64,000 nt of DNA from Promethearchaeota archaeon. GTDB taxonomy: Archaea; Asgardarchaeota; Lokiarchaeia; Sigyniarchaeales; SOKP01. Position numbers and translations under genes: made by a program. The stretch covers positions 30,009-94,008 of the forward strand of contig JBHLNS010000008.1 in the NCBI GenBank assembly GCA_048941285.1, read 5' to 3'. How positions within the stretch are numbered: position 1 is the first letter of the stretch; each line of letters starts with the position of its first letter. Positions 11,273 to 61,600 of this stretch are shown here, one piece after another. Under the pieces are notes generated by a model that searched no databases, was not told where the DNA came from, and saw only the letters and a program-made list of their open reading frames with translations.

Positions 11273-13939
11273 TTGAGTGTTAACTTAAGGAATTTCTTTA
11301 TAGTATTTGATAGAAATCGTGAACATAAGAAAGATCTGTTATTTAATGTTAATTTCTTTTATTTAAAATCATTTAAGAAAAAGAAATTTGCATTTTCTTA
11401 CATAAAAGAACCATTTTTCAAGGGAACGGTAATTTTTGGGCCAGATTTTAAAAATAGAATACGTCCTCTAAATTTTAGTAAAATTGAGAAAGAAGGAAGT
11501 TCACAACCAATTAACCCGAGATTACTTAAAAAGTTCATTTTATCAGACAAAAATAAATTTATTGCTTTTTCGAGTCAAACTTCTTCTCAAGATGTTTCAC
11601 CTATCAAAGAAATGCTACAGAATTTTCAATATGATACAGATAAGATTATTAATTTAACCTTATGTAATTCATGTATGGAAAAGAACACCTTTACATTATT
11701 AAATGAAAATCTTCAAATTAAATCCTACAAAGATCAAATTATTTGTTCTGATTGTGCTTATGAGACTGTTTTAAATAGAATCAAGCTAGCAGGGCTTATT
11801 TCTCAAGAGAAAGTCAGTCCTAAATTAAAGAACTTTTTAATGCACTTAATACTCAAATTTAGGGATATTAGGAAGGTATTGGAAGCATTTAAAGCAGATT
11901 TCAATCCCGTTCGATCTCCTGAGATAACTCTTTATGATATTGAAAAAACTCCTCTAATAAGTAAAAAATTTCTTAATCAAGCAATAGAAGGTCTAGATAT
12001 TCCTTTATCTTTTAAAGATATATTGAAAGGATTAAAACTAATTAATTTACTGCCAATCCAAGCAATTTCTATCGAACAAGGCTTATTAACAAGACGAAAC
12101 AATCAATTAATTATGGCTCCTACCAGTGGAGGTAAAACATTAATAGGAGAATTAGCTGGAATTTCAAGGGTTTTAAATGAAAAAACCAAAAAGATGTTAT
12201 ATTTAGTACCAATTGTTGCTTTAGCTAATATTAGAACTGAAGAGTTTAAAGAAAAATATAAATCAATTAAACTGAAAGTTATCAAAAGAGTTGGAGAATC
12301 ATTATTTGAGAAAAAAGAAGATGATGACATTAAAGATTTAGCGAATTCACATATTATTATTGCAACATATGAAGCAATTGATTACATATTAAGAAGTGGG
12401 AATAAAGATCTATTAGGAAAAATTGGCACAATCGTAATTGATGAAATTCAAACATTAATTGATCCAGATAGAGGATTTATATTAGATGGTTTAATCGCTA
12501 GGTTAAAAACTCAATACCAATCTCAATTTCTATATTTAAGCGCAACATTAGGAGAACCAGAGTTTTTGGCGAAAAAATTGAATTGTGATCTAATAAAATA
12601 TAATGATCGTCCTGTTCCAGTTGAGCGTCATTTATTACTTTGTTTGAATGAAGCCCAGAAACTAAAATTTATCTCATTATTAATGAAAAGTTCTTATTCA
12701 AAGAAATCTAAATACGGGTTCAAAGGTCAATCAATAGTTTTTACAAATACTCGAAAAAAGTGTGAATCGATAACATCCTATTTGCAATTAAAAAGCCTTA
12801 ATGTGGCAGCTTATCATTCAGGTTTAACAAATGATGAAAGAAAAATTATTGAAGATGAATTTCAATCGCAGAAGTTGGCAGGAGTAGTAGCTACCGCAGC
12901 ATTAGCAGCAGGGGTTGATCTTCCAGCTAGGCAAGTAATATTTGAATCTTTAGCAATGGGGATAAATTGGTTAACAGTTGCAGAATTTGAACAGATGCTT
13001 GGACGAAGTGGTAGATTAAAAAAACATGAAAAGGGTTTAGCTTATATCTTAGTAGAACCTGGAAAGATATATTCACCTAAAATGAAAAATACTGAAGAAA
13101 ATATAGCTATAAAATTATTAAATGGAAGAATCAAAGATTATGAGCTAATACCTAATGAGGATAGATCTCAGACTGAAATTTTAGCATATATTTCTATGTA
13201 TAATGAGTGGATTCCAAAAAAAATGGTATTTAATTTTTATAATCATCTAATAAATGAACATTTTAATTTAGAGGAAGTTTTAAAGAAATTAATATCTCTT
13301 AATTTAGTTCGAATAAAGGAAGATCTGACAGTTAAAACAACGCGATTAGGAAGAGCAATTGCTAATTCATTTTTAAGTGTTGATGATAGTCTTATAATCA
13401 TTGAGAAATTACAAAGTAAATCAAAAACTCCTTTAGATATTGCTTTAGATATAGAATCTTTAAGAAATGTATACATATCAAAAAATATTGTTGCGGATTT
13501 ATCAAAAAATGTAAATATGAAATATTTTTCAAATAATCTCTTTAGTGCTAGTGTTTTATCTCTAATGAATGCGGAATATGTAAAAAAGAGAAAATCATTT
13601 TCCCGTGATTTTATTGATTTTATAATGAAATTAACTAATGATATATTCAATTGCAATTGTAAAGATAATCCATATTGCGATTGTGGGCGTTTAAATTTAG
13701 AAAAGCTAATCCTTGACTTAAGGATCACCCATAACATGACTATTGAAGAGATTTCTAATTATTTATTAGAAGAATATAAAATCATGGTTTTTAAAGGGGA
13801 TCTTATTGATTATTTAGAGAGTTTAATCTATAGTTTGGAAAGCATTAAAAACATCGCAGAAGGTATATCTAATTTAGATGAAGATTTCAATAACGAAATT
13901 AAAGAAATTCCTAACTTGATTGAGAGCATTAAATATTAA
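11273..13939 (+). CDS. Archaeal superfamily-2 DEAD/DEAH-box helicase with N-terminal zinc-ribbon region
   Basis: Motif I MAPTSGGKT, motif II VIDEIQ, motif III LSATL, AAGVDLPARQVIF, motif VI QMLGRSGR. N-terminal CNSC...CSDC and a C-terminal Cys cluster CNCKDNPYCDCG. The predicted start is TTG and there is no ATG in the first ~110 codons, so the start is uncertain. Confidence 0.8.
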   Translation: MSVNLRNFFIVFDRNREHKKDLLFNVNFFYLKSFKKKKFAFSYIKEPFFKGTVIFGPDFKNRIRPLNFSKIEKEGSSQPINPRLLKKFILSDKNKFIAFSSQTSSQDVSPIKEMLQNFQYDTDKIINLTLCNSCMEKNTFTLLNENLQIKSYKDQIICSDCAYETVLNRIKLAGLISQEKVSPKLKNFLMHLILKFRDIRKVLEAFKADFNPVRSPEITLYDIEKTPLISKKFLNQAIEGLDIPLSFKDILKGLKLINLLPIQAISIEQGLLTRRNNQLIMAPTSGGKTLIGELAGISRVLNEKTKKMLYLVPIVALANIRTEEFKEKYKSIKLKVIKRVGESLFEKKEDDDIKDLANSHIIIATYEAIDYILRSGNKDLLGKIGTIVIDEIQTLIDPDRGFILDGLIARLKTQYQSQFLYLSATLGEPEFLAKKLNCDLIKYNDRPVPVERHLLLCLNEAQKLKFISLLMKSSYSKKSKYGFKGQSIVFTNTRKKCESITSYLQLKSLNVAAYHSGLTNDERKIIEDEFQSQKLAGVVATAALAAGVDLPARQVIFESLAMGINWLTVAEFEQMLGRSGRLKKHEKGLAYILVEPGKIYSPKMKNTEENIAIKLLNGRIKDYELIPNEDRSQTEILAYISMYNEWIPKKMVFNFYNHLINEHFNLEEVLKKLISLNLVRIKEDLTVKTTRLGRAIANSFLSVDDSLIIIEKLQSKSKTPLDIALDIESLRNVYISKNIVADLSKNVNMKYFSNNLFSASVLSLMNAEYVKKRKSFSRDFIDFIMKLTNDIFNCNCKDNPYCDCGRLNLEKLILDLRITHNMTIEEISNYLLEEYKIMVFKGDLIDYLESLIYSLESIKNIAEGISNLDEDFNNEIKEIPNLIESIKY

Positions 13940-15129
13940 GTTATATGTATTTCTACAATATCATAATCTTTTAGTGCATAATCTAATCCAACTTTTTTGC
14001 GTTTTTGCCTTACTCCTTCACGTATTACAATTGCATGTTCAAAGTTCTCAAAGAAGCTTCTATGAATCTTTTCAGCAACTTCTTTTACGGTTACACCCTG
14101 TTCCATTAGGAGAGGTTGATCAGCCACTCTTCCACTGCTCATAGTAAATATTCTAATTTTTTTTAGAAATTTTATGATTATCTCACCAAAATCTTTTGGG
14201 AAATTCTCTTTTTCAAAGCTTGTACCAAGAATTATTGGAAATCTATTTGAATATGTTGTTTTTAACATCTCAAAAGTCTCTTGAGTGTGTGGAAGATCTC
14301 CTTTAGTTCCTAATATAATTACTTTTTTATAAACAATAGAAGGAGTAAGAACATCAATAAGATTATTTATATTAATTTTTCCATATATTTTTACAATTCC
14401 ATTACGAATTCCATTTTCTTTCACAATTTCTTTTATATCTTCTGTTAGCTTATCCAATTCCTCAATTTGTTTTGCTTCCTTAGTCATATATAAAACCTGA
14501 ATTTTATTTGCTCCAGTTTTTTCAATAGAAAGAGGGGGAGGGGGTATATTAATTCGAATGTCAGCTCTAGTTAACTCATTTAATAATAAATCCATCTGTT
14601 CTTTAACATTTCGAGATAAGTCTATACAAAAGCATAGTAGATCTGCTGCTCTAAGTTGTGAAAGAATTTCTTTTCCATTACCAATTCCTTCAGAAGCTCC
14701 TTCCATAATTGAGGGCATATCAACAATTTGAAATCTAATTTTTTGATATTTATAAATTCCAATTTCTGGGAGAGGGGTAAACCTACCAATTTTTTCGTTT
14801 GCAGCACCTGTTAAATAATTCAAAAGAGTAGTTTTCCCTACTCCTGGAGTATAATAACTGCTAACTAATATTATTTGAAGTCCTTCCTTTTTTATTGAAA
14901 AAGGACTAACAATCTTCTGGGTACTTTTCTGCTTTATTCTACGTTCCTCTACTTCACGTTTCATCTTTGCTAAACGGGATTTATTTAGAGCAACGATTTT
15001 TTCAGTAGCTTTATGCTTAGGTACTAGAGACAGAAATTCTTCTAATTTCTTGATTTTTTCTTCTGTTGAATTAGCATCAAGATATTCTTGATATTTTGTT
15101 TTTGCAGCAGTTGGTAAATTTGAGCTCAA
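13936..15129 (-). CDS. DRG/Rbg-family (Obg-like) GTPase with C-terminal TGS domain
   Basis: P-loop YTPGVGKTTLLNYLTG, DMPSIMEGASEGIGNGKEIL (DRG-type switch II), IRINIPPPPLSIEKTG, GTKGDL (G4), and a C-terminal TGS-like segment VGLDYALKDYDIVEIHI. TTG start. Confidence 0.8.
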   Translation of the reverse strand: MSSNLPTAAKTKYQEYLDANSTEEKIKKLEEFLSLVPKHKATEKIVALNKSRLAKMKREVEERRIKQKSTQKIVSPFSIKKEGLQIILVSSYYTPGVGKTTLLNYLTGAANEKIGRFTPLPEIGIYKYQKIRFQIVDMPSIMEGASEGIGNGKEILSQLRAADLLCFCIDLSRNVKEQMDLLLNELTRADIRINIPPPPLSIEKTGANKIQVLYMTKEAKQIEELDKLTEDIKEIVKENGIRNGIVKIYGKININNLIDVLTPSIVYKKVIILGTKGDLPHTQETFEMLKTTYSNRFPIILGTSFEKENFPKDFGEIIIKFLKKIRIFTMSSGRVADQPLLMEQGVTVKEVAEKIHRSFFENFEHAIVIREGVRQKRKKVGLDYALKDYDIVEIHIT

Positions 15130-15151: not shown

Positions 15152-15607
15152 TTAAAATAAAGAACGAAATCTATCTTCTGTTTTTAATTTTAAATCTCCT
15201 AATACTTCATTTATTCGGGTTTCAAATTCTTTGAAATATTTAGGTTTTTTTGAGAATATATCATTAAGAGGATAGCGATTCAGGAAATAGGTAATGATTT
15301 GATTTAACTGGCGTTTAACAACTGACGAATCTGTGGCTTTTTCTATAATAGCATATGACAATAAAGGTTGTTTATTATTTTCATCTTCGGTAGGTAAATT
15401 AACCATCTCACAGTAACATACTAATTTAAAGGACGCAAGGGAGATTACGTTTATATCATCACCGAAAACTTCACTAGTAAAACTTTCTAGTGCTGTTAAA
15501 AATCCTGCACGCAAGTTTGGGTCTAAGACATCATCTGAGGAAGAGTAATATTTGATTTCAACTAAGTTTCTCATGCCTAAATTTATTCCTACTTCAAGAA
15601 CAGCCAT
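15152..15607 (-). CDS. Stand-alone longin-like domain protein
   Basis: 151 aa. The predicted order is beta-beta-alpha-beta-beta-beta-alpha, with the motif DPNLRAGFLTALESFTSEVFG. The same motif recurs in ORFs 34334-35638 and 56743-61422. It sits 22 nt upstream of the DRG GTPase on the same strand. Confidence 0.55.
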   Translation of the reverse strand: MAVLEVGINLGMRNLVEIKYYSSSDDVLDPNLRAGFLTALESFTSEVFGDDINVISLASFKLVCYCEMVNLPTEDENNKQPLLSYAIIEKATDSSVVKRQLNQIITYFLNRYPLNDIFSKKPKYFKEFETRINEVLGDLKLKTEDRFRSLF

Positions 15608-23082: not shown

Positions 23083-25812
23083 ATGTTTAATCTTGAAGAA
23101 TTTAAGGATAGCTTAATTCTTGAAAAAGTTGATAAGCTAAATAAATACTTTTTTAAGAAAAAATCTGATAAAATATCTAAAATACTCAAAGAATTTTTAG
23201 CTTTATTAGATCAACAAGAATATGTTGTACCAATTACATATATTTTAAGTATTATAGCAGAAAAGGAAATAGAACTTATTTCTGAAGGATTAATAGAAAG
23301 AATTGAGGTTTTTTTCAACTCTGAGAATACTAAACTAAGGATTAACTCACTAATTATTATTGGATTTTTTATACAAGCAAATCCAAATTATATTAAAAAA
23401 TATTTTCAAGAATTCGTAAAATTCCTATTAGATGATTTTGAGGATGTTAGAAATAATATTCACTACTTTCTGCCAAAATTGGTTGAATTAAAACCTGAAT
23501 TAGCAAAAGATAATATAGATATCATCTTACAGAGTTTTGAAATTGAACAAAACAATGATAATCTTATTTCTTTATTAAAATTATTGCTTAAATGTGAAAT
23601 TCTTGAATTTGATCAGTTATATACTATTAAAAATATTTTAAAATCAATTCTTAACATAATTGAAATCAAAGAAAACTCTAAATTATTTAGAGAAGTAATA
23701 AATATAATAAAAAAGGTATATTCAGAGCTCGTTAAACTCGATTTGGAGAAAGAAGGTGCTGGAATAATCATAAACTTATTAGAAAATCAATTTTTAATGA
23801 AAAAAACAAATTTTACTGAAGTAGGTAGAAAAACTGGGATACAATTAAAAGACTATTTAAAGAAATTTGTAAAATCTAAGTTAAAGGATAAAAAAATCTT
23901 TTTTTATATTAAAACAAAAGAAAATTTGATATATATTTATGAATTAGAAAAAAGCAAATTAAAAAGATTCTTTGAGCAGAAAATTAAAATATCAGATGAG
24001 CTTATCAAGAAAACTTTTTCGCAAGTTATAGATAATGGCTCAGAATTAAAAATTTTTATCAAAACGTTAAATAACTTAAAATTAATTGATGGTTATTATT
24101 CTAACATTGGATTTTTTTATCCAACTATTTATATAAAGTCAATGTTATTAGAAGATTTACAAACAAATGGAGCTATAAGCATAAAAAAGTTCAATTTTCT
24201 TCCACATAATTTTATTGAAAGAATCATTAAAGATATTTCCAAGGTTACCAATCAAAAATTTTTAAGACATAAAGATAAAGAAACTTATATATCTTTAAAA
24301 AAAGTTAAAGATCAAATTAATTCTGAAGCAGCAAAAAAAAGTGTTATAGAATTACGACAATATCGTGAGATTTTATTTGATGAAGATTTCATAAAATTGA
24401 TAAAAAATATGCCTAGAGCGTTTTTATCAGAATTTCATAAAGGAACACAGTGGTTAACTAATCTAGGGTCACAAAAAATTAGTAATGAGATCCAAAATTC
24501 TAAAATAGTTGGTTATTTTAACATTTCTAAAGTATCTGATAAATTAAATATAGCAGAGCTTCTATTATTAGACGTTTTTGAACAATTTGTAGATTATAGA
24601 AGTGGGATTTGGAATAGAGAAAAAAATATCTTTTATTATTCAAAGTATTTAAAAGAAAAAATCGATCAAATTAGTTTAGTTTCTGATGAACATGAAAAAT
24701 TGCAGCAAATTGAAGTGATCTCTACAGAACTTAATATTGATAAGAATCATATTTTATCCAAAATAGATGAAAATTTACAATTGATTGCAGAAGAAATAAA
24801 ACAGAAAGATCAAATAATATTAAGTGAATACCTCCAAAAAACAGGGATGGAATTAGATGATTTTTTGACATTTATTGATGATTTAGATATTCATTACTTC
24901 AGAAAGGCGGATTTATTAATTTTTAATACTCAGAAAATTGATGAGGCAAAAAATGAAATAAAATATATGTTAATTGATAAGTCTAAATCAGAGGATTATA
25001 TACCACTAGGAACAATGAAATTTATTCAATCAACTCTGATTGAAGATTTAATGAAGGAATTACTACAAGATGGAAAGTTAAAAGGCATTTTTCATGAAGA
25101 GGAAGGAGAACTCATTTTTTATACGGAACGAGGAATCGGTAAGTTGATGCTAGAAAATAGCTTACTTTTTTCATTTCATGATTTATTTTATGGTAAGGAA
25201 TTAAATCAAGAAGAAATTGATTTATTGAAGGGAATATTTGAAGATTTAATTAAAAGTAGAGTTATCAAAGGAGATTTTGATGAGGAAACGTTAACTTTTT
25301 CTAGTGATGAAGTATTATTTGCGAAAGATTACAATATTGTTTTATCGGAATTTGAAAAAATGGTAGAAAATTATATTAAGAATTTTGAAATTGAATTCCA
25401 AAAGATCAAAAAAATTCTTATTAAGAGAGAAGAAACAATTTTTCCACAAGAGATAAAGTATATTCAAGATATTATTGACAAAATTAATGAGAAATATATT
25501 AATTGGAGAAGTGGTTTAGAAGCTTTTATACGTAGAACTAATAAAAAGTTATTAAGAGATCAAGGTATTAGCGTAAGACAATATAAAACCATTCTCTCAA
25601 AAGAAAAAAAAGAAGAAATAAAATCATTAGAGCAAGATCCCGAAGTACATGAGCTTTTAAATAAATTTAATAATTGGGTAAAAAGATATAATAAAATTGA
25701 ATTAAAATATCCAAATATAATATTTTACCAAAAAAGATTGATGAATAATCCAGAAGACAGGGAGTCTAATACTAAATTAATAGAATTATTAGATGAATTA
25801 GAGTTAAAATAG
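23083..25812 (+). CDS. Large helical protein: N-terminal HEAT/ARM-like solenoid plus repeated winged-helix-like modules, function unknown
   Basis: 909 aa, K/E/I/L-rich. The first ~220 aa show HEAT-like periodicity (NTKLRINSLIIIGFFIQANPNYIKKYFQEFVKFLLDDFEDVRNNIHYFLPKLVEL). Later segments repeat a pattern such as NGAISIKKFNFLPHNFIERII and KIVGYFNISKVSDKLNIAELLLLDVFEQFV. Confidence 0.4.
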   Translation: MFNLEEFKDSLILEKVDKLNKYFFKKKSDKISKILKEFLALLDQQEYVVPITYILSIIAEKEIELISEGLIERIEVFFNSENTKLRINSLIIIGFFIQANPNYIKKYFQEFVKFLLDDFEDVRNNIHYFLPKLVELKPELAKDNIDIILQSFEIEQNNDNLISLLKLLLKCEILEFDQLYTIKNILKSILNIIEIKENSKLFREVINIIKKVYSELVKLDLEKEGAGIIINLLENQFLMKKTNFTEVGRKTGIQLKDYLKKFVKSKLKDKKIFFYIKTKENLIYIYELEKSKLKRFFEQKIKISDELIKKTFSQVIDNGSELKIFIKTLNNLKLIDGYYSNIGFFYPTIYIKSMLLEDLQTNGAISIKKFNFLPHNFIERIIKDISKVTNQKFLRHKDKETYISLKKVKDQINSEAAKKSVIELRQYREILFDEDFIKLIKNMPRAFLSEFHKGTQWLTNLGSQKISNEIQNSKIVGYFNISKVSDKLNIAELLLLDVFEQFVDYRSGIWNREKNIFYYSKYLKEKIDQISLVSDEHEKLQQIEVISTELNIDKNHILSKIDENLQLIAEEIKQKDQIILSEYLQKTGMELDDFLTFIDDLDIHYFRKADLLIFNTQKIDEAKNEIKYMLIDKSKSEDYIPLGTMKFIQSTLIEDLMKELLQDGKLKGIFHEEEGELIFYTERGIGKLMLENSLLFSFHDLFYGKELNQEEIDLLKGIFEDLIKSRVIKGDFDEETLTFSSDEVLFAKDYNIVLSEFEKMVENYIKNFEIEFQKIKKILIKREETIFPQEIKYIQDIIDKINEKYINWRSGLEAFIRRTNKKLLRDQGISVRQYKTILSKEKKEEIKSLEQDPEVHELLNKFNNWVKRYNKIELKYPNIIFYQKRLMNNPEDRESNTKLIELLDELELK

Positions 25813-34333: not shown

Positions 34334-35638
34334 ATGAGCACTGAAACTGAAATTACTGAGGAAAACGTAATTGATTATCTAATCGAAAAGAGTAAAAGCA
34401 AATTTGGTTTGTTTTCTATTAATTATATTCTAATAAATTGTAAAATTAAAGAATTGTTAGAATTTATTTCCGATTATGGGATTACGGTTCCTGAAAAACC
34501 ATTTATTAGCAGACTTGAATATATAAAGCTTATTTTAACACATTTAACTAATACTTATAACTCAACAGATTGGCAAAAAAGATTTGAGAATCCTTTAGAA
34601 TATTGTGGATATGCTGTAATTAATTCAAAAACATTCAAGAAATATCTATATCATTTAGACTTCATTGCAAAGCAAGATTTGAGTGAAACTTTTGCTGATT
34701 ATTGTGCTGATCACGAAATAACTGTTCATAATACCTCCTATAATTCTATTACACCTAAAATGGATATGTACTTAACAATGAAAAAATCAAAAGTCAAGAC
34801 TGCAGCTGTATTTGTTATGAATGGAGTCAATGTTAATGATAATAGATATCTCGAGGTAAAAGATTCAATTAAGCTAGCTGCTAAGATTGCGAGTTGGAAT
34901 ATTTTTGTAACAACACCCATAGGAGTTCTTAGAATAGGGTTGAGAAATTTAATTTATGATATGAAAAATTTAAATTGTTGGCTTTATGTTGTAGATCCAT
35001 CAAGGAAAATAGTTTATGGTGTTATAAAGGCAAAAAAGAACGATGATTATGATCTTGAAATGCGAAATCAGTTTATTAAAAAACTTCCAAAAGAACCAAT
35101 GAGAGCTCCTTCGCAAGTAATAAAATTATCAGATTATTATTTCGACGAATCTAATTCGTTTGACTCTTATAATTTTAGACTTTTTGATATCTATAATGAC
35201 TTAGAACATAATAAGTTAATGCTTAAAGAATCTAATGCGCCAAAATATTCGGATATTTTCAGAGATTTAATAATAATGGAAAAAACTAGTGGAGCGCCTT
35301 TAATAAACTATGCTAGCGAAAATTTCAAGGAACAGGCATTAGTATCAGGTTTTTTAGCTGCAATGGATTCATTTGTTACTCAAATTGGAGGCTCAAAGAT
35401 GGAAGAGATTAATTATAAAGGTCTTTATGTTCAAGCAAGTTATGGTAAAGATATTGAAATTGTATGTTTTTTATTTAAACCACCAGACTCAAGTTTTAAG
35501 GAAAGGCTTAATTATCTTTCTAATCTTATTGAAGCACTTTATCAAGATCAAATTGATTTATTTAAGAAAACTGGTAATGTTAATTTATTTGATGAAGATG
35601 AGATATTATCAATTACTAAAGAGATCCTTGATATTTAA
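34334..35638 (+). CDS. Protein of unknown function with C-terminal longin-like domain
   Basis: 434 aa. C-terminal ~100 aa: LIIMEKTSGAPLINYAS...ALVSGFLAAMDSFVTQIGG...INYKGLYVQASYGKDIEIVCFLFK...RLNYLSNLIEALY. This is the same motif and predicted secondary-structure order as ORF 15152-15607 and the tail of ORF 56743-61422. Confidence 0.5.
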   Translation: MSTETEITEENVIDYLIEKSKSKFGLFSINYILINCKIKELLEFISDYGITVPEKPFISRLEYIKLILTHLTNTYNSTDWQKRFENPLEYCGYAVINSKTFKKYLYHLDFIAKQDLSETFADYCADHEITVHNTSYNSITPKMDMYLTMKKSKVKTAAVFVMNGVNVNDNRYLEVKDSIKLAAKIASWNIFVTTPIGVLRIGLRNLIYDMKNLNCWLYVVDPSRKIVYGVIKAKKNDDYDLEMRNQFIKKLPKEPMRAPSQVIKLSDYYFDESNSFDSYNFRLFDIYNDLEHNKLMLKESNAPKYSDIFRDLIIMEKTSGAPLINYASENFKEQALVSGFLAAMDSFVTQIGGSKMEEINYKGLYVQASYGKDIEIVCFLFKPPDSSFKERLNYLSNLIEALYQDQIDLFKKTGNVNLFDEDEILSITKEILDI

Positions 35639-35705: not shown

Positions 35706-36776
35706 ATGGCAGTTGAAGAAAAATCAGAAACTTATGAAAACTTATTTAGTCTTAAACTTCGAAAGTATGAGGATAAACTTGTAGAGTTTCTTTTAGATAT
35801 AGCTGAAAGTAAACGTGTTAATCCAAAAATATCTAAAATCTCTTCATATTTATTAATCCATGGAGAATTAACTCAGAGAGAATTAAAGGAGTTAACAGGA
35901 TTTTCAATGGGCTCAATTTCCACTTTCTTATCTGTTATGACTGGTACAGGAACCTATAAAAAAGAGCGACTTCCTGGTACTCATACCTATGTGTATTCCT
36001 TTTCGGGCAAACTTGAAGATCTTACCACAATGGGATTAGAACTCGCGTTAAATAGTTTCAATAGGTTACAGAGTTATTTTAAAAACAAAAAAAAGGAATT
36101 AAATAAATTACTTGAACAATCTAAAAAAGGAGCAGATCATCTTCTTCAAAGAATTGATGAATTGTTTGAAGTATTTGAAATTTATAAAGTTTTATTCCCT
36201 ATAATAACTCAGAATAAAATTGATAAAAACATCAATGTAGAAAAACCAATTCTTACCAGAAGAGAAGAAAAGGAACCAAAGAAAATTCAATTTGATGCAG
36301 AAGTATATGTACTTGAAGATGATATTTTGAATCAATTTGCAGCATCACCTATTTTTTCAAGCCGAGATCCAATGTTTGTTAAGATTCTTGGCTATTTTAT
36401 TACTAGAAAATATCTTACTCAAAAAAAAATAAAGAATATTACAGGTTTATCAGTTGGGAAAATTTCTGAAGAAGTTAACTTATTATTAGAAAACGGACTA
36501 ATAGAAAAAGTGGACATATCACCTAAAGGAAAAATTACATATGGGGCTGAATCTGCTGGAGTAATTCTCCTAAAGTTTTCACGATCGATTATTAACAAAA
36601 TGGCAGAATGGGATACTGAGCTACAAAAAATGAAGATAGAATTGGAAAATAATAGAACTAGCTTAGAAAAATTGAAGGGCTATTCCCGGATTTACAAGAT
36701 TAATGATTATATTCTGGATTTAATTATGAAATATAAAATATTTATTGAAATGGCGGATCAAATTTTAAACGCATAA
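35706..36776 (+). CDS. Double winged-helix regulator (fusion equivalent of ORFs 32153-32671 and 32674-33204)
   Basis: 356 aa. HTH 1 is ISSYLLIHGELTQRELKELTGFSMGSISTFLSVM. HTH 2 is ILGYFITRKYLTQKKIKNITGLSVGKISEEVNLLLENGLIEKV. Each is followed by a helical region resembling the tail of the corresponding split gene (for example LEKLKGYSRIYKINDYILDL versus LQKLNGYDKVKDFLEINL). Confidence 0.6.
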   Translation: MAVEEKSETYENLFSLKLRKYEDKLVEFLLDIAESKRVNPKISKISSYLLIHGELTQRELKELTGFSMGSISTFLSVMTGTGTYKKERLPGTHTYVYSFSGKLEDLTTMGLELALNSFNRLQSYFKNKKKELNKLLEQSKKGADHLLQRIDELFEVFEIYKVLFPIITQNKIDKNINVEKPILTRREEKEPKKIQFDAEVYVLEDDILNQFAASPIFSSRDPMFVKILGYFITRKYLTQKKIKNITGLSVGKISEEVNLLLENGLIEKVDISPKGKITYGAESAGVILLKFSRSIINKMAEWDTELQKMKIELENNRTSLEKLKGYSRIYKINDYILDLIMKYKIFIEMADQILNA

Positions 36777-37987: not shown

Positions 37988-38584
37988 ATGAGTTATAACC
38001 GAAAAGATATTTTATTTAGCTTTAAAACCGTGATTTGTGGTGCCAGTTCAGTAGGTAAAACCTCATTATTTAATCGTTATTGTTTTAACTCATTCAATTT
38101 TGATAGCTCTCCAACAATTGGAATAAATTTTCATTCTGTCTATTTAAAAATAAATTTTAAAAAGGAGATAAACCCACAGAAGGAAAATTATGTTGTAAAC
38201 TCTATTTTTGATTTCGGAGGGCAAGAAAGATTTACCCCGTTAATTCCAAAATTTATAGACGGTGCTAATGGAGCTTTATTAGTTTTTGATTCCGTAAATT
38301 TTCCATCTTTCAATCAATTAGATTTTTGGTATGATAATATCATTGAAAATGCAATAGATCCAAAGATTCCTATTATATTAGTTGCAAATAAAAGTGATTT
38401 AATAGAGAAAACCTCAGAATCTGAAATTATTCATGATAAATTAATTTTTGAATATTTAGAAAATCGAAAATTAGATGGTTTCGCTAGAACATCCGCTTTA
38501 GAGAATTACAATGTTTTAGAAGTATTTAAAAAATTAAATAATTTAATGTTGAAGAAACAACGGATTCCATTTGTTGTAGCATAA
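37988..38584 (+). CDS. Rab-like small GTPase
   Basis: G1 GASSVGKTS, G2 SPTIGINF, G3 FDFGGQERF, G4 ANKSDL, G5 TSALEN. 198 aa with no C-terminal cysteine (ends IPFVVA). Confidence 0.85.
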   Translation: MSYNRKDILFSFKTVICGASSVGKTSLFNRYCFNSFNFDSSPTIGINFHSVYLKINFKKEINPQKENYVVNSIFDFGGQERFTPLIPKFIDGANGALLVFDSVNFPSFNQLDFWYDNIIENAIDPKIPIILVANKSDLIEKTSESEIIHDKLIFEYLENRKLDGFARTSALENYNVLEVFKKLNNLMLKKQRIPFVVA

Positions 38585-56742: not shown

Positions 56743-59700
56743 TTGACAATCATGAGCTATTCAAAAATTACAAAAACAAAACATTTGCTCGTCCTTTTTT
56801 TACTATTAGCTACTACTGTTATTACAAGTATTAATTTTAGTTATACGAACATAATTCAAAATCAGACAGCAAGAGATTCCGAAACTAACAAAAATAATGA
56901 TAATAACTTTGATATTGAAAAGAATCTATTAATGGCGGATTATTCCTCTTCATTTGGTAAAAGGGGAGATAATTTAAACATTTCTTTGCATCAATCTTTA
57001 GTAAATTTATCTCAAGGCGATTTCTCAAATTTAGATAATTCAAATACTCTTAAAGAAGCTTGTCCTACTGATACTTCATTTAATTCTATTTTCACAAATA
57101 TTATAGTTGAGGATATATATGCTCCAAATAAATCCATAGTTATTGAAGATAATACTGTTGGGGCTGGTTTAGAAAATTTCTTCTTAGGGGAGTATTATGT
57201 ATCCTTTACAACAAGAGGATCAGGTTTTCTGGAAAATGTTTCAATTCCTATCAAACTAGTAACCGCTTTAAACAATGCTAATGTCACAATAAAATTATAC
57301 AATGCCAGAAATGATGGTTCAGGAGTTCCTGAACCTAATTCGAATATAGGATTAATAGTACCTAAAACTCTTATTACGAGCTCAACGTATTATTGGCACG
57401 AGTTTACTAATATTCATGCTGCTTTTGATTCATCTTCAACTTTTGCAAATACTTTTTTCTTAAGGGTCGAAAAAGTTCAAGGTGGTGCCGTGTATTGGGA
57501 TTGGTATTCAGATGGTACTGATGCTGATGAAACTTATGTATATGATGCAACTTTAATTTTGGAGACTTTTGGTGTTAATACTATTGATTTAGGATTGAAA
57601 GTTGCATTTTCACCACAAGATCATACACCCACCCCTGAAGGTATTAATTTTTTGATCAATAGTACTTCAGTGACCGGAGATTTAGTTATTGAAAATAAAG
57701 GTTCTTGGAAATCTTATAATGCATATAGAAATGCGTCGGGGTTATTATATTTTGTATTAACTGCTGAATGGTGGGATGTATCATGTAGTGTTACCTACGC
57801 TCAAATTAATTACACAAAAACAGATTTAACAGCAACCTCACTCTTTTCAGTAACAGGAAGTGGTGAATCGCTTAATTGGAATTCTACTCTTGGAATCGTG
57901 AATAATTTTGTTTCACCATTTAATAATTATGAGATTAATTTCACTGTTCCAAGAACATGGGAAAACTTTTCTGCATTCAAAGGCCCGACAGATAAAAGTT
58001 CTGATATTAATATTGGCCCAATAAATGAAGGGTATCTCGATCTTCAAATTAAAAATGCTGAAAATGGGATTAATTGGTATATCATGGCTCAATCTAAAAA
58101 TCTTTTGAAAAAGATCCGAACCTATGTAGGAATAGAAGATTTATCCATAATAAATTTTACAGACACCCTAAATTTTCTAGCAAATTTCTCAGAAATCATC
58201 TCAGATGGTACTATTAACTTAACTGTTTATAGCCCTGCTCCCGGTTACCATGAAAATTACTCATATTATGATGATTCAATAACTCCAGACTCAGAAATTT
58301 CTCTAGGAAGTTGGGCAATATCTAGTAGCGCTACTGAATATGGAATGTTTAAAGTTCAAATATGGTGGTATAATGCTACTGCAGGAGGATTTCTAGAAAA
58401 AGACATAACTATAATTGCAGTTACAGATTTAGTCCTAATATCCCCTCCTATTGATGAGGATCATTTCCCTGATGATATTTTCAATATAAGAGTATTTTAT
58501 AATGATACTGGTTTGAATTCAGGTGATCAAGGTATCCCTGGTGCTACAATTATTATAAATGGCACATACGTACCTCCTATTGTTGATGAAGGAAATGGAT
58601 ATTATCAAATTCAGATAAACTCAAGCGATTATATTTATAAAAAGAATTATATCGGAATTTATGCATTAAAAACAAATTACAACGGTGCTTTTAAAAGATT
58701 TTCATTCCATTTAAGACAATATACTTCAATTGCTCCATCGGATTCAAAAAATTTTGGCGATATTATAAGAGGAACAATAGTATCATATGAATTCAATTAT
58801 TCAGATGTAGTAGGAACACCTATTACAGGAGCTATTCCTAGTATTGTAGATCTAGATCCATCATTTTTACCAGGTTCATCAATAAGTGAAAATGTAGGAG
58901 AACCGGGAAATTATACAATTCAATTGGATACTAGTGATGTTGTAGCGTCAGCTATTCCATATGAATGCATATTCAATGTCATTGCGATAGGGAAAGAAGC
59001 AAAAAATATTACCATTTATTTAACGGTGATATTATCACAGACTAGTCTTAATATAATAGAATCTGAATCTTACCTTTTAAAGAGAGATGGTTTAAACCAA
59101 ACAGTCCTATTCTATTTCAATGACACAGATAATAATCTTCCAATCACAGGTCTTCCTGTTGGTGATGTTACTGTAACGGATAATCAAACAGGATTACCAA
59201 GGAATATATGGTTATTTCCAAATGGGACAGATGGGTATTATATTTTAAATATTTCAATTACAGCTTTAAATTCAGGTTGGATTGAGTTGACAATAGACAT
59301 TACTTTTGACCCTAATTATGCCACAAGTATAGCACCTGTAATTTTCTATTATGAGGGGAATAATACTCAGACTTATTTGAGATCTATGTCAGATCCTGGG
59401 GGAGAAGGTTCTCTCAGATGCATATCAAGCACATATACTTGTTTTATAGGAAGAGATATATATATTGACTTTAATATTACTGATACTAATAATGGAAATT
59501 CTCTAATTACTGGTTTAGCTAACTCTTATATAGTACAATATGTTGAAGTTGGAAATCCTGGCAATCAAGGTGTTTTGGGGCATTCCTTAAATAATGCTGC
59601 TATATCATATCAAGGAAGTATTGATACTTCAGACATTACAATACTAGGAACTTATGAAATTACTGTAAAAGTTTATAAAACAGATTTTGAGACATCAATA

Positions 59701-61422
59701 CTGAGTTTTAATTTAACACTAAGGGCTTTATACATAATTGATATAGTAGTGGATTACCCTGCTGAAATTACAGCAGGAGACTCATTTCATGTAATCATTC
59801 AAGTAAATTATTATAATACAACCGATTGGTTACTTTTAGTTGGCTCTAACGTTAGAATTACACCTTATTTTAAAGGAACACCAGGGACACCATCTTCATG
59901 GCTTCCCACAAATAATACAGGGGAAGTTGAATTTGAAATTCTAACTAGCAATACTATTAGAAACATAACATTAACAATCGAAGTTCAAAGCGAATACTAT
60001 CATGAAGCAGATACTAAAAATATCTATAATATTAAAGTTAATCCTCCTTTTGGACTTGGAGATATACTTCCATATCTAATTATCGCCGGTATTGCTGCCA
60101 TTGCTATTGCAAGCTCAGTTGGAGTTTATAAGGGTGTTGTAGTCCCTAAAAAGCGGGAAAAATCTCGTGTTCTTACAGAAGTAAAAACTATTTTTGATGA
60201 TGCGATTAATTTAGAACATATTTTAGTTCTCTATAAAGGAACAGGAACTTGTATCTATTTTAAATCATTTGGTTCTGAGCAAATTGACCCCGAACTAATT
60301 TCAGGCTTTATATCTGCAATAAGCAGTTTTGGTAAAGATTTAGTTAGTCAAGAAGAATTAAATGAAATATCATATGGTGACAAAATGTTGCTTCTTTCAG
60401 ATGGAGAATATATCAGAGTTGCTTTAGTATTAGGTAAAAAAGCTTCATTAATTTTGCGCAGAAATTTGATGGAATTCATTCATGGTTTTGAGAAATCTTA
60501 TAATAATGAGCTACCTAACTGGAGAGGTCAATTAAATATATTTAGAGATGCTGGAAATACTATAGATGAGATTTTAAACACTTCAATTATTTTACCTCAT
60601 GAAATAACCTACGAATTTTCCAGTACCAAAACATTAAAGAAACAACAATCCAAAGAAGTTTTAAAAGTTGCTACAAATTTAATGAAAGATTCAGAAAGAA
60701 ACTTTTTCTTTATAGCAACATTGTTAAAAGTAGCTACTGAAAAGACAAGTAAAGATACAGCGCAAATTTTTATGGGGATAAAAGAATTAAGAGATAAAAA
60801 AATATTAATGCCAATTGAGATATCTGCAATTGAAACTAAGCCAATATCTCAACAAGAATTGAATTTAATCAATCAGAAAGTTTCTCAACTAGTGAGTTTA
60901 TCAGCAGAAGAAAAGCAAAAATTAGTTAATGATCTTGCTCAAATGGGGCCAGCTGAAAGGGAAGCATATTTTGTAAGTTTAACTGAACAACAAGAGATTA
61001 TATCTGCTCCTATTGAAGCTAAACTTGGAGCTGCAGTGATTAACAATATTAAAGCAGCGAAAAAAGAAATTAAAAATTTAAAAAAGAATGGAATAGTAGC
61101 AAGAAAGGAGAAAGATTACGATAAATCTATCAAAATCTTCCAAAATGCTTTAAAAATTGCCTCAAATTGGGAACTAACAAAAGAGGCTCAGGAGTTCGAT
61201 GACTTTATACGTTTAACTAAAATTGTGGATCTAAAAACCAAAATGCAAAACCTTGAACAAGAAGCTAGATTAGCTGCTAAACAAGAAAATTATAATGAAG
61301 CGGCGCAAAAATATAAAATGTCTTCAAAAATAGCTTCTGAAATATTCAAATTAGGTGAAGATTTAACTAAAGAAGTTAAGAGATTATCAAATAAAGCAAA
61401 AGAATATGAAAAACTAATATAA
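56743..61422 (+). CDS. Giant single-pass surface protein: large sequon-rich beta ectodomain with Ig-like repeats, one TM helix, cytoplasmic longin-like domain plus helical/TPR-like tail
   Basis: 1559 aa. Signal/anchor LLVLFLLLATTVITSI. Many NxS/T sequons. Repeated modules of the type P(I/L)xGAxVxV...DG.Y.I... TM ILPYLIIAGIAAIAIASSVGVY (60061-60129) followed by KKREKSR. Longin-like LEHILVLYKGTGTCIYFKSFG...DPELISGFISAISSFGKDL...ISYGDKMLLLSDGEYIRVALVLGK (60211-60495). The more likely start is the ATG at 56752. Confidence 0.7.
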   Translation: MTIMSYSKITKTKHLLVLFLLLATTVITSINFSYTNIIQNQTARDSETNKNNDNNFDIEKNLLMADYSSSFGKRGDNLNISLHQSLVNLSQGDFSNLDNSNTLKEACPTDTSFNSIFTNIIVEDIYAPNKSIVIEDNTVGAGLENFFLGEYYVSFTTRGSGFLENVSIPIKLVTALNNANVTIKLYNARNDGSGVPEPNSNIGLIVPKTLITSSTYYWHEFTNIHAAFDSSSTFANTFFLRVEKVQGGAVYWDWYSDGTDADETYVYDATLILETFGVNTIDLGLKVAFSPQDHTPTPEGINFLINSTSVTGDLVIENKGSWKSYNAYRNASGLLYFVLTAEWWDVSCSVTYAQINYTKTDLTATSLFSVTGSGESLNWNSTLGIVNNFVSPFNNYEINFTVPRTWENFSAFKGPTDKSSDINIGPINEGYLDLQIKNAENGINWYIMAQSKNLLKKIRTYVGIEDLSIINFTDTLNFLANFSEIISDGTINLTVYSPAPGYHENYSYYDDSITPDSEISLGSWAISSSATEYGMFKVQIWWYNATAGGFLEKDITIIAVTDLVLISPPIDEDHFPDDIFNIRVFYNDTGLNSGDQGIPGATIIINGTYVPPIVDEGNGYYQIQINSSDYIYKKNYIGIYALKTNYNGAFKRFSFHLRQYTSIAPSDSKNFGDIIRGTIVSYEFNYSDVVGTPITGAIPSIVDLDPSFLPGSSISENVGEPGNYTIQLDTSDVVASAIPYECIFNVIAIGKEAKNITIYLTVILSQTSLNIIESESYLLKRDGLNQTVLFYFNDTDNNLPITGLPVGDVTVTDNQTGLPRNIWLFPNGTDGYYILNISITALNSGWIELTIDITFDPNYATSIAPVIFYYEGNNTQTYLRSMSDPGGEGSLRCISSTYTCFIGRDIYIDFNITDTNNGNSLITGLANSYIVQYVEVGNPGNQGVLGHSLNNAAISYQGSIDTSDITILGTYEITVKVYKTDFETSILSFNLTLRALYIIDIVVDYPAEITAGDSFHVIIQVNYYNTTDWLLLVGSNVRITPYFKGTPGTPSSWLPTNNTGEVEFEILTSNTIRNITLTIEVQSEYYHEADTKNIYNIKVNPPFGLGDILPYLIIAGIAAIAIASSVGVYKGVVVPKKREKSRVLTEVKTIFDDAINLEHILVLYKGTGTCIYFKSFGSEQIDPELISGFISAISSFGKDLVSQEELNEISYGDKMLLLSDGEYIRVALVLGKKASLILRRNLMEFIHGFEKSYNNELPNWRGQLNIFRDAGNTIDEILNTSIILPHEITYEFSSTKTLKKQQSKEVLKVATNLMKDSERNFFFIATLLKVATEKTSKDTAQIFMGIKELRDKKILMPIEISAIETKPISQQELNLINQKVSQLVSLSAEEKQKLVNDLAQMGPAEREAYFVSLTEQQEIISAPIEAKLGAAVINNIKAAKKEIKNLKKNGIVARKEKDYDKSIKIFQNALKIASNWELTKEAQEFDDFIRLTKIVDLKTKMQNLEQEARLAAKQENYNEAAQKYKMSSKIASEIFKLGEDLTKEVKRLSNKAKEYEKLI

Positions 61423-61432
61423 TCTTTTTATA

Positions 61433-61441
61433 TTTTTTTTT
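61433..61441 (+). terminator. T9 tract downstream of the giant surface-protein gene
   Basis: aatctttttatattttttttt begins 3 nt after the stop. Confidence 0.4.
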
Positions 61442-61600
61442 ATTTCTCCAATCCAAAAAAGTTTGAATTTAATTATTACTGATTTTTAATACCTGAAAAA
61501 TCTATAAATCAGATAATTTGTCAATCGAATAAAGAATAGAAAATAATATTTAAGCAAAAATATAATTGGAAAACATGAATTTAATTTGAAATATATTTTA

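Follow-up and report, generated by a model that had tools for sequence, protein, structure and literature searches.

The gene at 56743..61422 on the forward strand of our window, the whole 64,000-nucleotide stretch of DNA analysed, encodes a putative giant, glycosylated type I single-pass surface protein in an Asgard archaeon of the class Lokiarchaeia. A predicted longin-fold domain sits immediately below the membrane and is of a type that is also joined to Arf-like GTPases in other Asgard proteins. We hold it an even call that this is right as a whole, with the protein a surface receptor or adhesin and its longin tail a docking or regulatory platform for an Arf-like GTPase.

The open frame runs uninterrupted through 1559 codons counted from a TTG. 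That start is a mechanical call, and the ATG at 56752, three codons into the frame, is likely the true one, giving 1556 aa. The stop codon is TAA (61420-61422), and a T-rich run directly 3′ of it on the same strand (61423..61446) reads as archaeal terminator-like. The convergent gene radA lies on the opposite strand at 61601. Metatranscriptome fragments match the gene at 99–100%. At least 80 genomes have it as a core gene, in single copy and in synteny, with radA the convergent neighbor in 73 of 80 orthologous loci of species-representative genomes, and about 20 full-length orthologues of 1408–1914 aa have the identical layout. Neither this gene nor the four relatives inspected have a GTPase or roadblock gene as a conserved neighbor.

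Topology and ectodomain

A hydropathy scan with a 19-residue window finds only two segments with a mean above 2.0, at aa 15–33 and aa 1108–1126. The former (56785..56841, forward strand; mean 2.13) follows a Lys-rich n-region and is predicted to be either a Sec signal peptide or an N-terminal anchor; complete family members carry its equivalent. The latter lies in the single transmembrane (TM) helix, aa 1107–1129 (60061..60129, forward strand), whose mean of 2.26 is the protein maximum and which is helical in the AlphaFold2 (AF2) tail model. Its sequence varies across orthologues while its hydrophobicity is kept. KKREKSR stands directly C-terminal of it, and the basic juxtamembrane stretch is conserved in 15 orthologues.

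The predicted glycosylation agrees with this orientation. The ectodomain has 34–35 NxS/T sequons against 18.1 ± 3.7 expected from shuffles, a count matched by 1 of 20000 shuffles, and the 430-aa tail has one. Many ectodomain sequons are conserved in 12–16 of 16 orthologues. The type I topology with one TM helix and the sequon-rich ectodomain, both proposed in the first-pass annotation, are thus borne out by the hydropathy, the positive-inside cluster and the sequon asymmetry.

The structures of both the ectodomain and the tail are AF2 predictions. The ectodomain, aa 34–1106 (56842..60060, forward strand), is modelled with a pLDDT of 84.4 as strands essentially throughout. Foldseek returns 458 PDB matches to it at E ≤ 1e-3, topped by tandem Ig, FN3 and MG arrays such as Robo2, MDGA1, contactin-2, complement C3/C5 and the alpha-2-macroglobulins (E 1e-17 to 1e-11). 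By the model, roughly ten beta-sandwich domains of Ig/FN3/macroglobulin-like type are arrayed along nearly its full length. At least five Ig-like repeats had been placed at its end; the beta-sandwich assignment stands in the AF2 and Foldseek results, and the restriction to the last five does not. In the membrane-proximal part, aa ~570–1100 (58450..60042, forward strand), self-comparison gives weak internal repeats with a period of ~105 aa (E 4e-3 to 0.1), among them the matches 581-658 / 791-865 / 905-994 (E 0.004–0.02). The five repeats of the first-pass annotation correspond to this part.

Cytoplasmic tail

The juxtamembrane segment, aa 1130–1156 (60130..60210, forward strand), consists of the positive-inside cluster KGVVVPKKREKSR and the conserved helix LTEVKTIFDDAINLEH, which in the AF2 model continues directly into strand 1 of the longin domain. 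It is 52–89% identical between orthologues. The longin-fold domain follows at aa 1157–1283 (60211..60591, forward strand), assigned by the tail model and Foldseek. The family motif DPELISGFISAISSFG lies inside it, and an invariant SIILPH closes it. No other part of the protein is as conserved: orthologues are 64–90% identical here against 30–43% in the ectodomain.

The tail model has a pLDDT of 85.5 overall and mostly 85–93 in the longin domain, whose elements are ordered b-b-a-b-b-b-a-a. Its PDB matches include AP-2 sigma (TM-score 0.64, rmsd 2.8 Å, 125 columns), AP-1 sigma3 (TM-score 0.70), zeta-COP, VAMP7, LAMTORs and MglB. All 50 matches listed are longin or roadblock proteins, save one weak outlier. 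With the longin domain making up a quarter of the model, the E-values stay modest (4e-3 to 3e-2). The Pfam longin and roadblock models have no match to the protein sequence. A longin-like domain had been read from the letters at 60211-60495 (aa 1157–1251), which coincides with the bb-a-bbb-a core of the model, and the tail modelled alone does adopt a longin or roadblock fold by AF2 and Foldseek.

The next part, aa 1284–1363 (60592..60831, forward strand), is a three-helix subdomain modelled with a pLDDT of ~90. It may be called winged-helix-like on its secondary-structure order (in model numbering E186-189, H202-218, H225-236, H240-252, E256-258), and searches of Pfam and PDB give no sequence match for it. 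As part of the conserved core module, it also occurs in short-tailed paralogues and is spanned by the family consensus. A helical connector, aa 1364–1419 (model residues 271-315), and a low-confidence linker, aa 1420–1435 (pLDDT <50 at model residues 326-330), lead on in the AF2 model (together 60832..61047, forward strand).

The C-terminal domain, aa 1436–1559 (61048..61419, forward strand), is modelled as five TPR-like helices with a pLDDT of 92–96 and has two 'K-x-DY-x-K/E-A/S-I/A-x-x-Y/F' hairpin motifs. Pfam TPR_2 matches it at E 4.4e-5, which falls short of the gathering score. Consensus-TPR designs are hit by a profile at E 4e-9, a value summed over four repeats of a single design, none of whose stretches is significant by itself. 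These results uphold the earlier call of a helical, TPR-like end. The domain is found in 79 of 80 orthologous loci and is confined to this orthologue group.

A large family and its link to small GTPases

A family profile of aa 1130–1291, searched against 1.84 billion representatives, retrieves 4734 clusters with E ≤ 1e-3, of which 188 have E ≤ 1e-30. In 175 of the 180 members retrieved whose upstream sequence is long enough, a TM segment lies at most 45 aa upstream of the longin domain, which is the architecture that the first-pass annotation wished to see surveyed in Asgard. Complete type I proteins number 66 of these members, with ectodomains of 295–2374 aa; paralogue ectodomains include Big_1, FG-GAP, MG4 and Invasin_D3 domains. 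The named members are Asgard without exception. The TM + longin module, covered by no Pfam model, is the mark of a large Asgard family in which the cytoplasmic module is retained and the ectodomain exchanged. This family is apparently new and undescribed so far.

Membership of the protein in this paralogous family had been overlooked before, as had two more proteins with the same longin type encoded in the window. The same longin type also occurs in the soluble relative P0101, together with strong TPR and MIT matches.

In eukaryotes, the longin fold docks small GTPases. The family profile also matches P0283, an N-terminal longin joined to a P-loop GTPase, at a database-wide E of 7.5e-8. The P0283 family, made up of ~300-aa proteins, comprises over 200 clusters, and in 3 of 10 members tested the C-terminal half exceeds the Pfam Arf gathering score. 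The longin profiles of the two families align in hhalign with a probability of 99.4% (E 5e-22, 123 columns). At the level of sequence profiles, the longin of the surface family is thus homologous to that fused to Arf-like GTPases in Asgard. This gives an indirect, Rosetta-stone argument for the proposed GTPase docking by the tail.

Three GTPases of the window, two Ras-type and one DRG-type (3951-4955, 13936-15129, 37988-38584), had been suggested as partners. They find no support, being 18–53 kb away from the gene and none of the subtype fused to this longin type. Of the first-pass reading, the architecture holds, and the proposed coupling of the cell surface to GTPase or cytoskeletal machinery is suggested indirectly by the homology to the GTPase-fused longins. 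The fold alone leaves GTPase regulation unspecified because its best structural matches, the sigma-adaptins and zeta-COP, are coat subunits and not GEFs or GAPs.

In the mechanism that we favor, the roughly ten fast-evolving beta-sandwich domains outside would form an adhesin- or receptor-like stalk. The juxtamembrane helix, the longin-fold domain and the winged-helix-like subdomain make up a strongly conserved module directly under the membrane. The tethered longin domain would probably dimerize, in the manner of other longin and roadblock domains. This platform may dock or regulate an Arf-like small GTPase, or its downstream machinery, and bring it to the site of ectodomain engagement. The TPR-like end could offer a second surface for protein binding.

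Alternative explanations

The protein could instead be a structural piece of the S-layer-less Lokiarchaeial envelope or glycocalyx, its tail anchoring, oligomerizing or tying it to the cytoskeleton without GTPase switching. We consider this unlikely. A single-copy syntenic core gene with a large, predicted glycosylated ectodomain would fit, and dimerization is a role of longin and roadblock domains (PMC10933270). Two reports describe many protruding surface densities and no S-layer on lokiarchaeal cells (PMC9834061) and one cultured relative with a quarter of its proteins predicted at the surface, many adhesin-like (bioRxiv 10.1101/2025.07.22.663070). However, ~430 conserved cytoplasmic residues, far more constrained than the ectodomain, are superfluous for a mere anchor, and the same longin type is joined to GTPase domains in other proteins.

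Equally doubtful is a built-in sorting adaptor, in which the sigma/zeta-like longin marks the protein as cargo and recruits coat-like, ESCRT or vesicle-budding machinery. The tail would then set the location of the protein, in protrusions or vesicles, and relay no outside signal. AP-2 sigma, AP-1 sigma3 and zeta-COP as best structural matches speak for it, as do P0101 and the Asgard ESCRT-linked multidomain proteins that combine longin, TPR and Ig-like domains (PMC10936438). The TPR-like C-terminal helices are also weakly MIT-like, but the Vps4 MIT matches reach only E ~4, which is not significant. Moreover, ESCRT and adaptin genes are absent nearby, and internal vesicle traffic is not shown for the cultured Lokiarchaeia (PMC10933270).

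Far less probable is a small-molecule sensor, a PAS/GAF-like cytoplasmic domain that tunes the adhesin from inside. The longin domain is a distant relative of the PAS/GAF fold class (De Franceschi 2014, cited by PMC4917890), and in Asgard, fusions of longin domains with two-component signalling domains are on record (bioRxiv 10.1101/2020.10.19.343400). Yet none of the 50 top structural matches listed is a PAS or GAF protein, and sequence and Pfam give the protein no ligand-binding motif and no kinase output domain.

A mis-assembly fusing a surface-protein gene to a cytoplasmic longin gene in a repeat-rich region, for which one could cite the near-identical ectodomain repeats that break orthologous assemblies (as at the N-gap in L001) and the mostly partial database homologues, has negligible probability and is excluded, since over 20 contigs, independent of one another and drawn from different samples, are colinear over ectodomain, TM and tail, run X1 in an independent assembly yields a 2471-base contig that matches 57758-60228 without difference, and the full-length orthologues, the radA synteny and the TM helix just N-terminal of the longin domain in the family all mark a single genuine gene.

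Comparison with known systems

The eukaryotic longins (sigma-adaptins, zeta-COP, VAMP7/Sec22/Ykt6, TRAPPC1/4) share the b-b-a-b-b-b-a-a order with our model, at TM-scores of 0.55–0.70 normalized to the target. In both, the domain is cytosolic and membrane-held, although the sequence similarity to the Pfam longin families is undetectable. The longin SNAREs have a SNARE motif and a C-terminal anchor. In our protein, a SNARE motif was not found, and the TM helix is N-terminal of the longin and joined to a huge ectodomain.

Ragulator, with its LAMTOR1-anchored roadblock dimers, and MglB are likewise membrane-held roadblock/longin-superfamily platforms that dock small GTPases, and LAMTOR2-5 and MglB match the tail model. 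The LAMTORs do so at TM-scores of 0.42–0.59, below the longins. Ragulator has its lipid anchor on a separate subunit and no ectodomain. The N-terminal helix extends from the TM helix here, whereas it folds back in roadblock.

In the SRP receptor, the longin-fold SRX domain of SR-alpha is bound to the TM-anchored Arf-like GTPase SR-beta. It would resemble our proposed mechanism in pairing a longin-type fold with an Arf-like GTPase at the membrane via one TM helix. This helix is on the GTPase there, not on the longin-type domain, and our protein is without SRP-related domains.

As to the ectodomain, the metazoan Ig/FN3 adhesion receptors Robo, contactin and MDGA and the bacterial invasin/intimin or alpha-2-macroglobulin-type arrays set tandem beta-sandwiches on one TM helix, as our protein does, and supply the top structural matches. 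Their identity to our protein is about 10% and their cytoplasmic domains differ, so the likeness is that of a fold class and not orthology.

Closer in host are the adhesin-like surface proteins described from cultured Promethearchaeaceae (bioRxiv 10.1101/2025.07.22.663070; PMC9834061). In the passages of these reports that were searched, they have the signal sequence, fibronectin/Ig-like repeats and membrane-spanning segment of our protein, and a conserved cytoplasmic longin module goes unmentioned.

The Asgard longin-Arf-like fusions, a class described in Klinger et al. 2016 (cited by PMC4917890) and also in PMC10933270, have the motif D-x-x-L-I-S-G-F-L/I-x-A-I-S-x-F in common with our protein, as in P0283. 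They are soluble with the GTPase in cis, whereas our protein is membrane-anchored, lacks a GTPase domain and adds the winged-helix-like and TPR-like parts.

Gene integrity and possible expression

The ORF at 56743–61422 (+) is a single unbroken frame closed by TAA at 61420–61422, in a window with 29% G+C and zero Ns. Its 1559 codons, whose numbering is used here, are counted from a TTG, and an alternative ATG occurs three codons past it at 56752. This ATG is likely the true start and the TTG a mechanical call; from the ATG the protein would begin MSYSKITKTKHLLVLFLLLATTVITS. The stop codon is followed by a T-run, and radA is convergent on the opposite strand at 61601.

An assembly artefact joining two genes, a possibility raised with the first-pass annotation, has a negligible chance. 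It is contradicted by more than 20 colinear proteins, running from ectodomain through TM helix to tail, among the 101 that matched in a tail search (fragments predominate, and the named ones are all Asgard). A further ~20 full-length orthologues of 1408–1914 aa came from an exhaustive search, and an independent assembly of sequencing run X1 gave a 2471-base contig that spans 57758–60228 with zero differences. Mis-assembly is thus rejected, since independent contigs and full-length orthologues join the ectodomain, TM helix and tail.

Most database homologues are partial because near-identical repeats in the orthologous ectodomains break assemblies. At L001, an orthologous locus on an ENA scaffold, the ectodomain carries such tandem repeats of ~370 bases each at 7500–8000. 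They coincide with a scaffold N-gap, and the gene call is broken into 1626-aa and 682-aa pieces.

Sediment metatranscriptome fragments with 99–100% identity cover 59921–60291 and 60965–61293, which suggests that the gene is transcribed; their depth is low, and they may also be DNA carry-over. Within the longin domain, 60334–60377 corresponds to a 47-base contig in run X3 at a word depth of 146 versus ~3–5 in the neighbouring pieces. Many related strains or genes of the run X3 sample may have this stretch in common.

Topology and ectodomain

In the hydropathy profile, just two 19-residue windows are strongly hydrophobic, aa 15–33 and aa 1108–1126, and the second is followed by KGVVVPKKREKSR. 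Fifteen orthologues retain a basic juxtamembrane stretch; the membrane segment itself is variable. Lys and Arg make up 5% of the ectodomain versus 16% of the tail. The single TM helix with positive-inside charge, as first annotated, is therefore upheld by hydropathy and the retained basic residues.

The ectodomain has 34 NxS/T sequons versus 18.1 ± 3.7 in shuffles, a count reached in 1 of 20000 shuffles, and the tail has one. Many ectodomain sites are retained in 12–16 of 16 orthologues, with N356, N544 and N79 among the conserved sequons, and the asymmetry holds in every orthologue with 40–91 sequons outside versus 0–5 inside. At the sequence level, the predicted N-terminal signal, the one TM helix, the positive-inside charge and the one-sided sequons of a type I single-pass surface glycoprotein are all present. 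As judged from the expected signs of hydropathy, sequons and charge, the protein is predicted to be a type I N-glycosylated surface protein.

The AF2 model of the ectodomain (aa 34–1106, 35-sequence alignment) is all-beta with a pLDDT of 84.4. The model bears out the annotated beta-rich character, and the sequon count the sequon-rich one. Foldseek against the PDB returned 458 matches with E ≤ 1e-3 over 700–850 aligned columns, led by Robo2, MDGA1, contactin-2, protocadherins, complement C3/C5 MG arrays and alpha-2-macroglobulins. The model contains a tandem Ig/FN3/MG array of beta-sandwich domains of ~100 aa. Pfam Ig-type models gave no match to the protein.

From the all-beta model and these matches, nearly the whole ectodomain appears to be an array of beta-sandwich domains, about ten in all. 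At least five Ig-like repeats had been annotated. Sequence self-similarity is weak and confined to roughly the last five domains, which agrees with that count, but the array is larger.

Predicted longin fold of the tail

The tail modelled alone (aa 1100–1559, 48-sequence alignment) gave a longin fold with a pLDDT of 85.5. Its TM and juxtamembrane segments form one long helix, which leads to the longin domain at aa 1157–1283 with the order b-b-a-b-b-b-a and two short helices. The elements are E58–65, E70–76, H84–99, E107–112, E115–121, E125–131, H137–153 and H165–184 in AF2 model residues. The predicted structure has the five-stranded antiparallel sheet and the order b1-b2-a1-b3-b4-b5-a2-a3 of longins.

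Foldseek of the tail against the PDB matched sigma-adaptins, zeta- and delta-COP, VAMP7, Ykt6 and TRAPP Bet5/Trs23, and also LAMTOR2–5, Rag C-terminal domains, a Streptomyces roadblock protein and MglB. The list is essentially longin/roadblock throughout. Its E-values of 4e-3 to 3e-2 are modest because the longin domain makes up a quarter of the searched tail. The best TM-scores came from sigma-adaptins, zeta-COP and VAMP7, with 0.64 (rmsd 2.8 Å) for AP-2 sigma and 0.70 for AP-1 sigma3. The model and the matches show that the longin-like domain had been placed accurately at 60211–60495.

Curated longin models of Pfam and NCBIfam (Pfam Longin, Clat_adaptor_s, Sybindin, Sedlin_N and SRX) had no match with E ≤ 1, be it in the full-length sequence, its tail or 37 members of the family. 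The longin domain profile matched no PDB sequence either. The domain is a longin by its predicted fold but not by the curated sequence models.

The next part, aa 1284–1363, has a strand, three helices and a short wing in the model. It is winged-helix-like in secondary-structure order alone, and neither Pfam nor PDB gave a sequence match to it. Further helices, a disordered linker and a C-terminal domain of five helices in the AF2 model make up the rest.

The C-terminus had been annotated as TPR-like or coiled-coil. It appears TPR-like, though below threshold, with a TPR_2 match of 23.7 bits versus the cut-off of 27. Its profile matched designed consensus TPRs with E 4e-9, summed over the repeats of one design, and its similarity to the MIT domain of Vps4 was not significant (E ~4 at best). 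Sub-threshold TPR matches were all that Pfam and NCBIfam returned on the whole protein, tail and sub-domains. In the PDB, the ectodomain was searched by sequence, and the whole protein, tail, longin domain, middle domain and C-terminus by profile; here too the matches were TPR-like only. A 'dynein light chain' PDB match of the middle domain was dismissed as not significant (E 0.07–0.28).

Conservation and family

The constrained part of the protein is the cytoplasmic module. Identity to orthologues is 30–43% in the ectodomain, 52–89% in the juxtamembrane helix, 64–90% in the longin domain, 40–85% in the winged-helix-like part and 35–81% in the TPR-like end. Topology, predicted folds and conservation together bear out the annotated observation and support its architectural reading.

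One genome per GTDB species was scanned with the orthologue-group alignment, which reaches the orthologue group only. This gave 100 confirmed matches, from which 80 loci were retained; every title names Promethearchaeota, Promethearchaeia or another Asgard group. Their longin domains share 64–94% identity, 79 of the 80 have the TPR-like tail, and 73 have radA as the convergent neighbour. Genes for a P-type ATPase and an ATP-grasp protein lie upstream both at L001 and in the window. The gene belongs to the vertically inherited core of the class Lokiarchaeia. Its neighbours are housekeeping genes and hence uninformative on its function.

Elsewhere in the window, a 909-aa ORF at 23083–25812 (+) has a sub-threshold split match to an intein splicing domain (aa 513–786) and is probably an intein-containing gene. 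An 888-aa DEAD/Helicase_C protein with a C-terminal DUF5814 domain is encoded at 11273–13939 (+).

A profile of aa 1130–1291, searched against 1.84 billion representative proteins, matched 4734 clusters with E ≤ 1e-3, 1075 with E ≤ 1e-10 and 188 with E ≤ 1e-30. Soluble longin proteins are probably among the weaker clusters, so 4734 is not a count of TM-anchored members. The family description rests on the best 150 of these clusters and the phyletic range on the named members, which come from Lokiarchaeum ossiferum (WP_371805894.1), Harpocratesius and MAGs labelled Hel-, Hod- and Thorarchaeota.

The TM and longin-like architecture, for which a survey was proposed with the annotation, recurs among the retrieved members. 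A TM-like segment lies within 45 residues upstream of the domain in 175 of the 180 retrieved members with at least 30 upstream residues, and 66 of the retrieved members are complete, with a type I layout and ectodomains of 295–2374 aa. The extensions at the C-terminus group into three length classes (about 50–100, 250–300 and 450–500 residues). The shortest is the winged-helix-like part, so the core module consists of the juxtamembrane helix, the longin domain and this part; no Pfam family covers it. Paralogue ectodomains match Big_1, Big_3_5, FG-GAP, MG4 and Invasin_D3. The family swaps ectodomains on a conserved longin-fold module.

P0101, a 771-aa relative on another contig, is soluble without a TM helix, and its ~600 aa of strong, MIT-matching TPR repeats precede a C-terminal longin of the same type. 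Thus, TPRs and this longin type recur in different arrangements.

Possible link to GTPases

A profile of the diverse family alignment matched P0283, a longin–GTPase fusion protein, with E 7.5e-8 in a 5.8-billion-sequence database. In P0283, residues 1–133 correspond to the longin domain and are followed by a P-loop GTPase. Its family has >200 clusters of ~300-aa Asgard proteins, named Arf-like, SAR1-family, Rab-family or SR-beta in the sources, and Pfam Arf exceeded the gathering score in three of ten tested. By hhalign, the TM-anchored profile matched the fusion N-terminal domain with a probability of 99.4% and E 5e-22 over 123 columns. Members with a TM anchor were matched by the fusion profile with E 1e-9 to 1e-7, the window protein with E 2.7e-3 (Z = 1.8 billion).

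Longin–Arf-like fusions are already known in Lokiarchaeum (PMC4917890; PMC10933270). The new point is that their longin subtype also sits beneath the membrane on surface proteins. By the domain-fusion argument, which is not proof, the TM-longin module would have a GTPase partner in trans.

The three GTPases of the window had been nominated as partners, and this nomination found no support. Two are Ras-type, at 3951–4955 (−) (Pfam Ras, E 2e-30) and 37988–38584 (+), and one is DRG-type with MMR_HSR1 and TGS at 13936–15129 (−). They lie 18–53 kb from the gene, and none matched the GTPase part of the longin–GTPase fusions with E ≤ 1. As partners by subtype they are rejected, none being of the fused kind.

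No conserved GTPase or roadblock neighbour occurs around five family members, an orthologue and four relatives; an Arf/Ras-like gene 8 kb from the relative P0248 is a single case and no pattern. This absence of recurrent GTPase neighbours fits the published comment that the operons of MK-D1 do not combine GTPase genes with roadblock/longin genes (PMC10933270). As to the annotated link from the surface to GTPases or the cytoskeleton, homology to the GTPase-fused longins speaks for it but the gene context gives no support.

Other genes of the window carry the same longin type. At 15152–15607 (−), a stand-alone 151-aa protein has the motif DPNLRAGFLTALESF of the family and no Pfam match, and an exact sequence look-up of it gave nothing. 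On its strand, the gene precedes the DRG/Obg-type GTPase at 13936–15129 (−) by 22 bases, and the two make an operon-like longin–GTPase pair. A 434-aa protein at 34334–35638 (+), also without Pfam match, has the longin type at its C-terminus (aa ~315–428; E 9e-14 with the family profile). A MarR/TrmB-like winged-helix protein at 35706–36776 (+) comes next and, 2.3 kb further, the Ras-type GTPase at 37988–38584 (+). At 3951–4955 (−), the Ras GTPase continues C-terminally for ~165 aa in what looks like a Lys/Glu-rich, coiled-coil-like extension.

Proposed role and alternatives

Sequence and models place a putatively glycosylated beta-sandwich stalk, roughly 30–40 nm long, outside the cell on one TM helix, with the longin-fold module directly beneath the membrane. 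The module may be a dimeric platform that docks or regulates an Arf-like GTPase or its effectors, so tying surface engagement to intracellular switching, and to this we give about an even chance. The TPR-like end would be an additional binding surface in this orthologue group. Coupling of the surface to GTPases or the cytoskeleton is a reasonable and testable hypothesis.

Two other roles are each unlikely. The module could be a built-in sorting adaptor, to which the sigma- and zeta-type coat subunits as best structural matches would point. It could also be a purely structural envelope anchor; even then, the result annotates a 'hypothetical' core gene and a domain family without a Pfam model. 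A ligand sensor is highly improbable.

For the docking platform, a wider proposal is tentative and on balance doubtful: that TM-longin modules are how Asgard archaea, which appear to have no prenylation, GDI or REP systems, bring small GTPases to the membrane. On this view, a docking platform of the Ragulator or SRX kind would be built into each of dozens of surface receptors whose ectodomains are interchangeable. Contact outside the cell, such as with a syntrophic partner, would then be linked directly to Arf-like GTPase switching and to actin or membrane remodelling.

Asgard genomes are rich in small GTPases and longin/roadblock proteins, while in Lokiarchaeum CAAX motifs, prenyltransferases and GDI/REP were not found and the GTPase genes are outside operons of putative regulators (PMC4917890; PMC10933270). 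A membrane-tethered longin platform on surface proteins would give a concrete handle on GTPase action at Asgard membranes. The tails are tractable, being small, conserved and soluble-looking, and two related organisms are cultured. Candidate partners can be listed from genomes as the Arf-like GTPases related to those fused with the same longin type.

Lokiarchaeal surface densities have been invoked in models of the cell–cell contacts preceding eukaryogenesis. The family is a candidate molecular identity for some of these densities.

Comparison with known systems

In Asgard archaea, longin/roadblock proteins count among the established 'eukaryotic signature proteins' (PMC4917890; PMC10933270; bioRxiv 10.1101/2020.10.19.343400), and adhesin-like surface proteins are described in cultured Lokiarchaeia (PMC9834061; bioRxiv 10.1101/2025.07.22.663070). 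Full-text literature searches, which did not extend to Klinger et al. 2016 or to the asCOG tables, gave no description of an ectodomain, TM helix and longin in one polypeptide. The folds are known and the widespread architecture is new, although the family may have been listed earlier.

A PAS/GAF-like sensor reading of the cytoplasmic domain was considered and rejected. Longin SNAREs (VAMP7/Sec22/Ykt6) have a SNARE heptad motif after the longin and a C-terminal anchor, whereas here the TM helix precedes the domain and the C-terminus is TPR-like. Synaptobrevin/SNARE Pfam models gave no match to the protein, and on these three grounds membership is ruled out.

Roadblock/LC7 proteins have the order a1-b1-b2-a2-b3-b4-b5(-a3), with the N-terminal helix packed on the sheet. 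The window protein has an N-terminal helix too, but it runs on from the TM segment and enters b1 without a turn. TM-scores of LAMTOR and MglB are 0.42–0.59, below those of the longins, and a Robl_LC7 Pfam match is absent. The helix order and the higher TM-scores in the predicted structure favour longin over roadblock. If the wider proposal is true, the family would be a prokaryotic forerunner of receptor-to-GTPase signalling and cargo-adaptor coupling.
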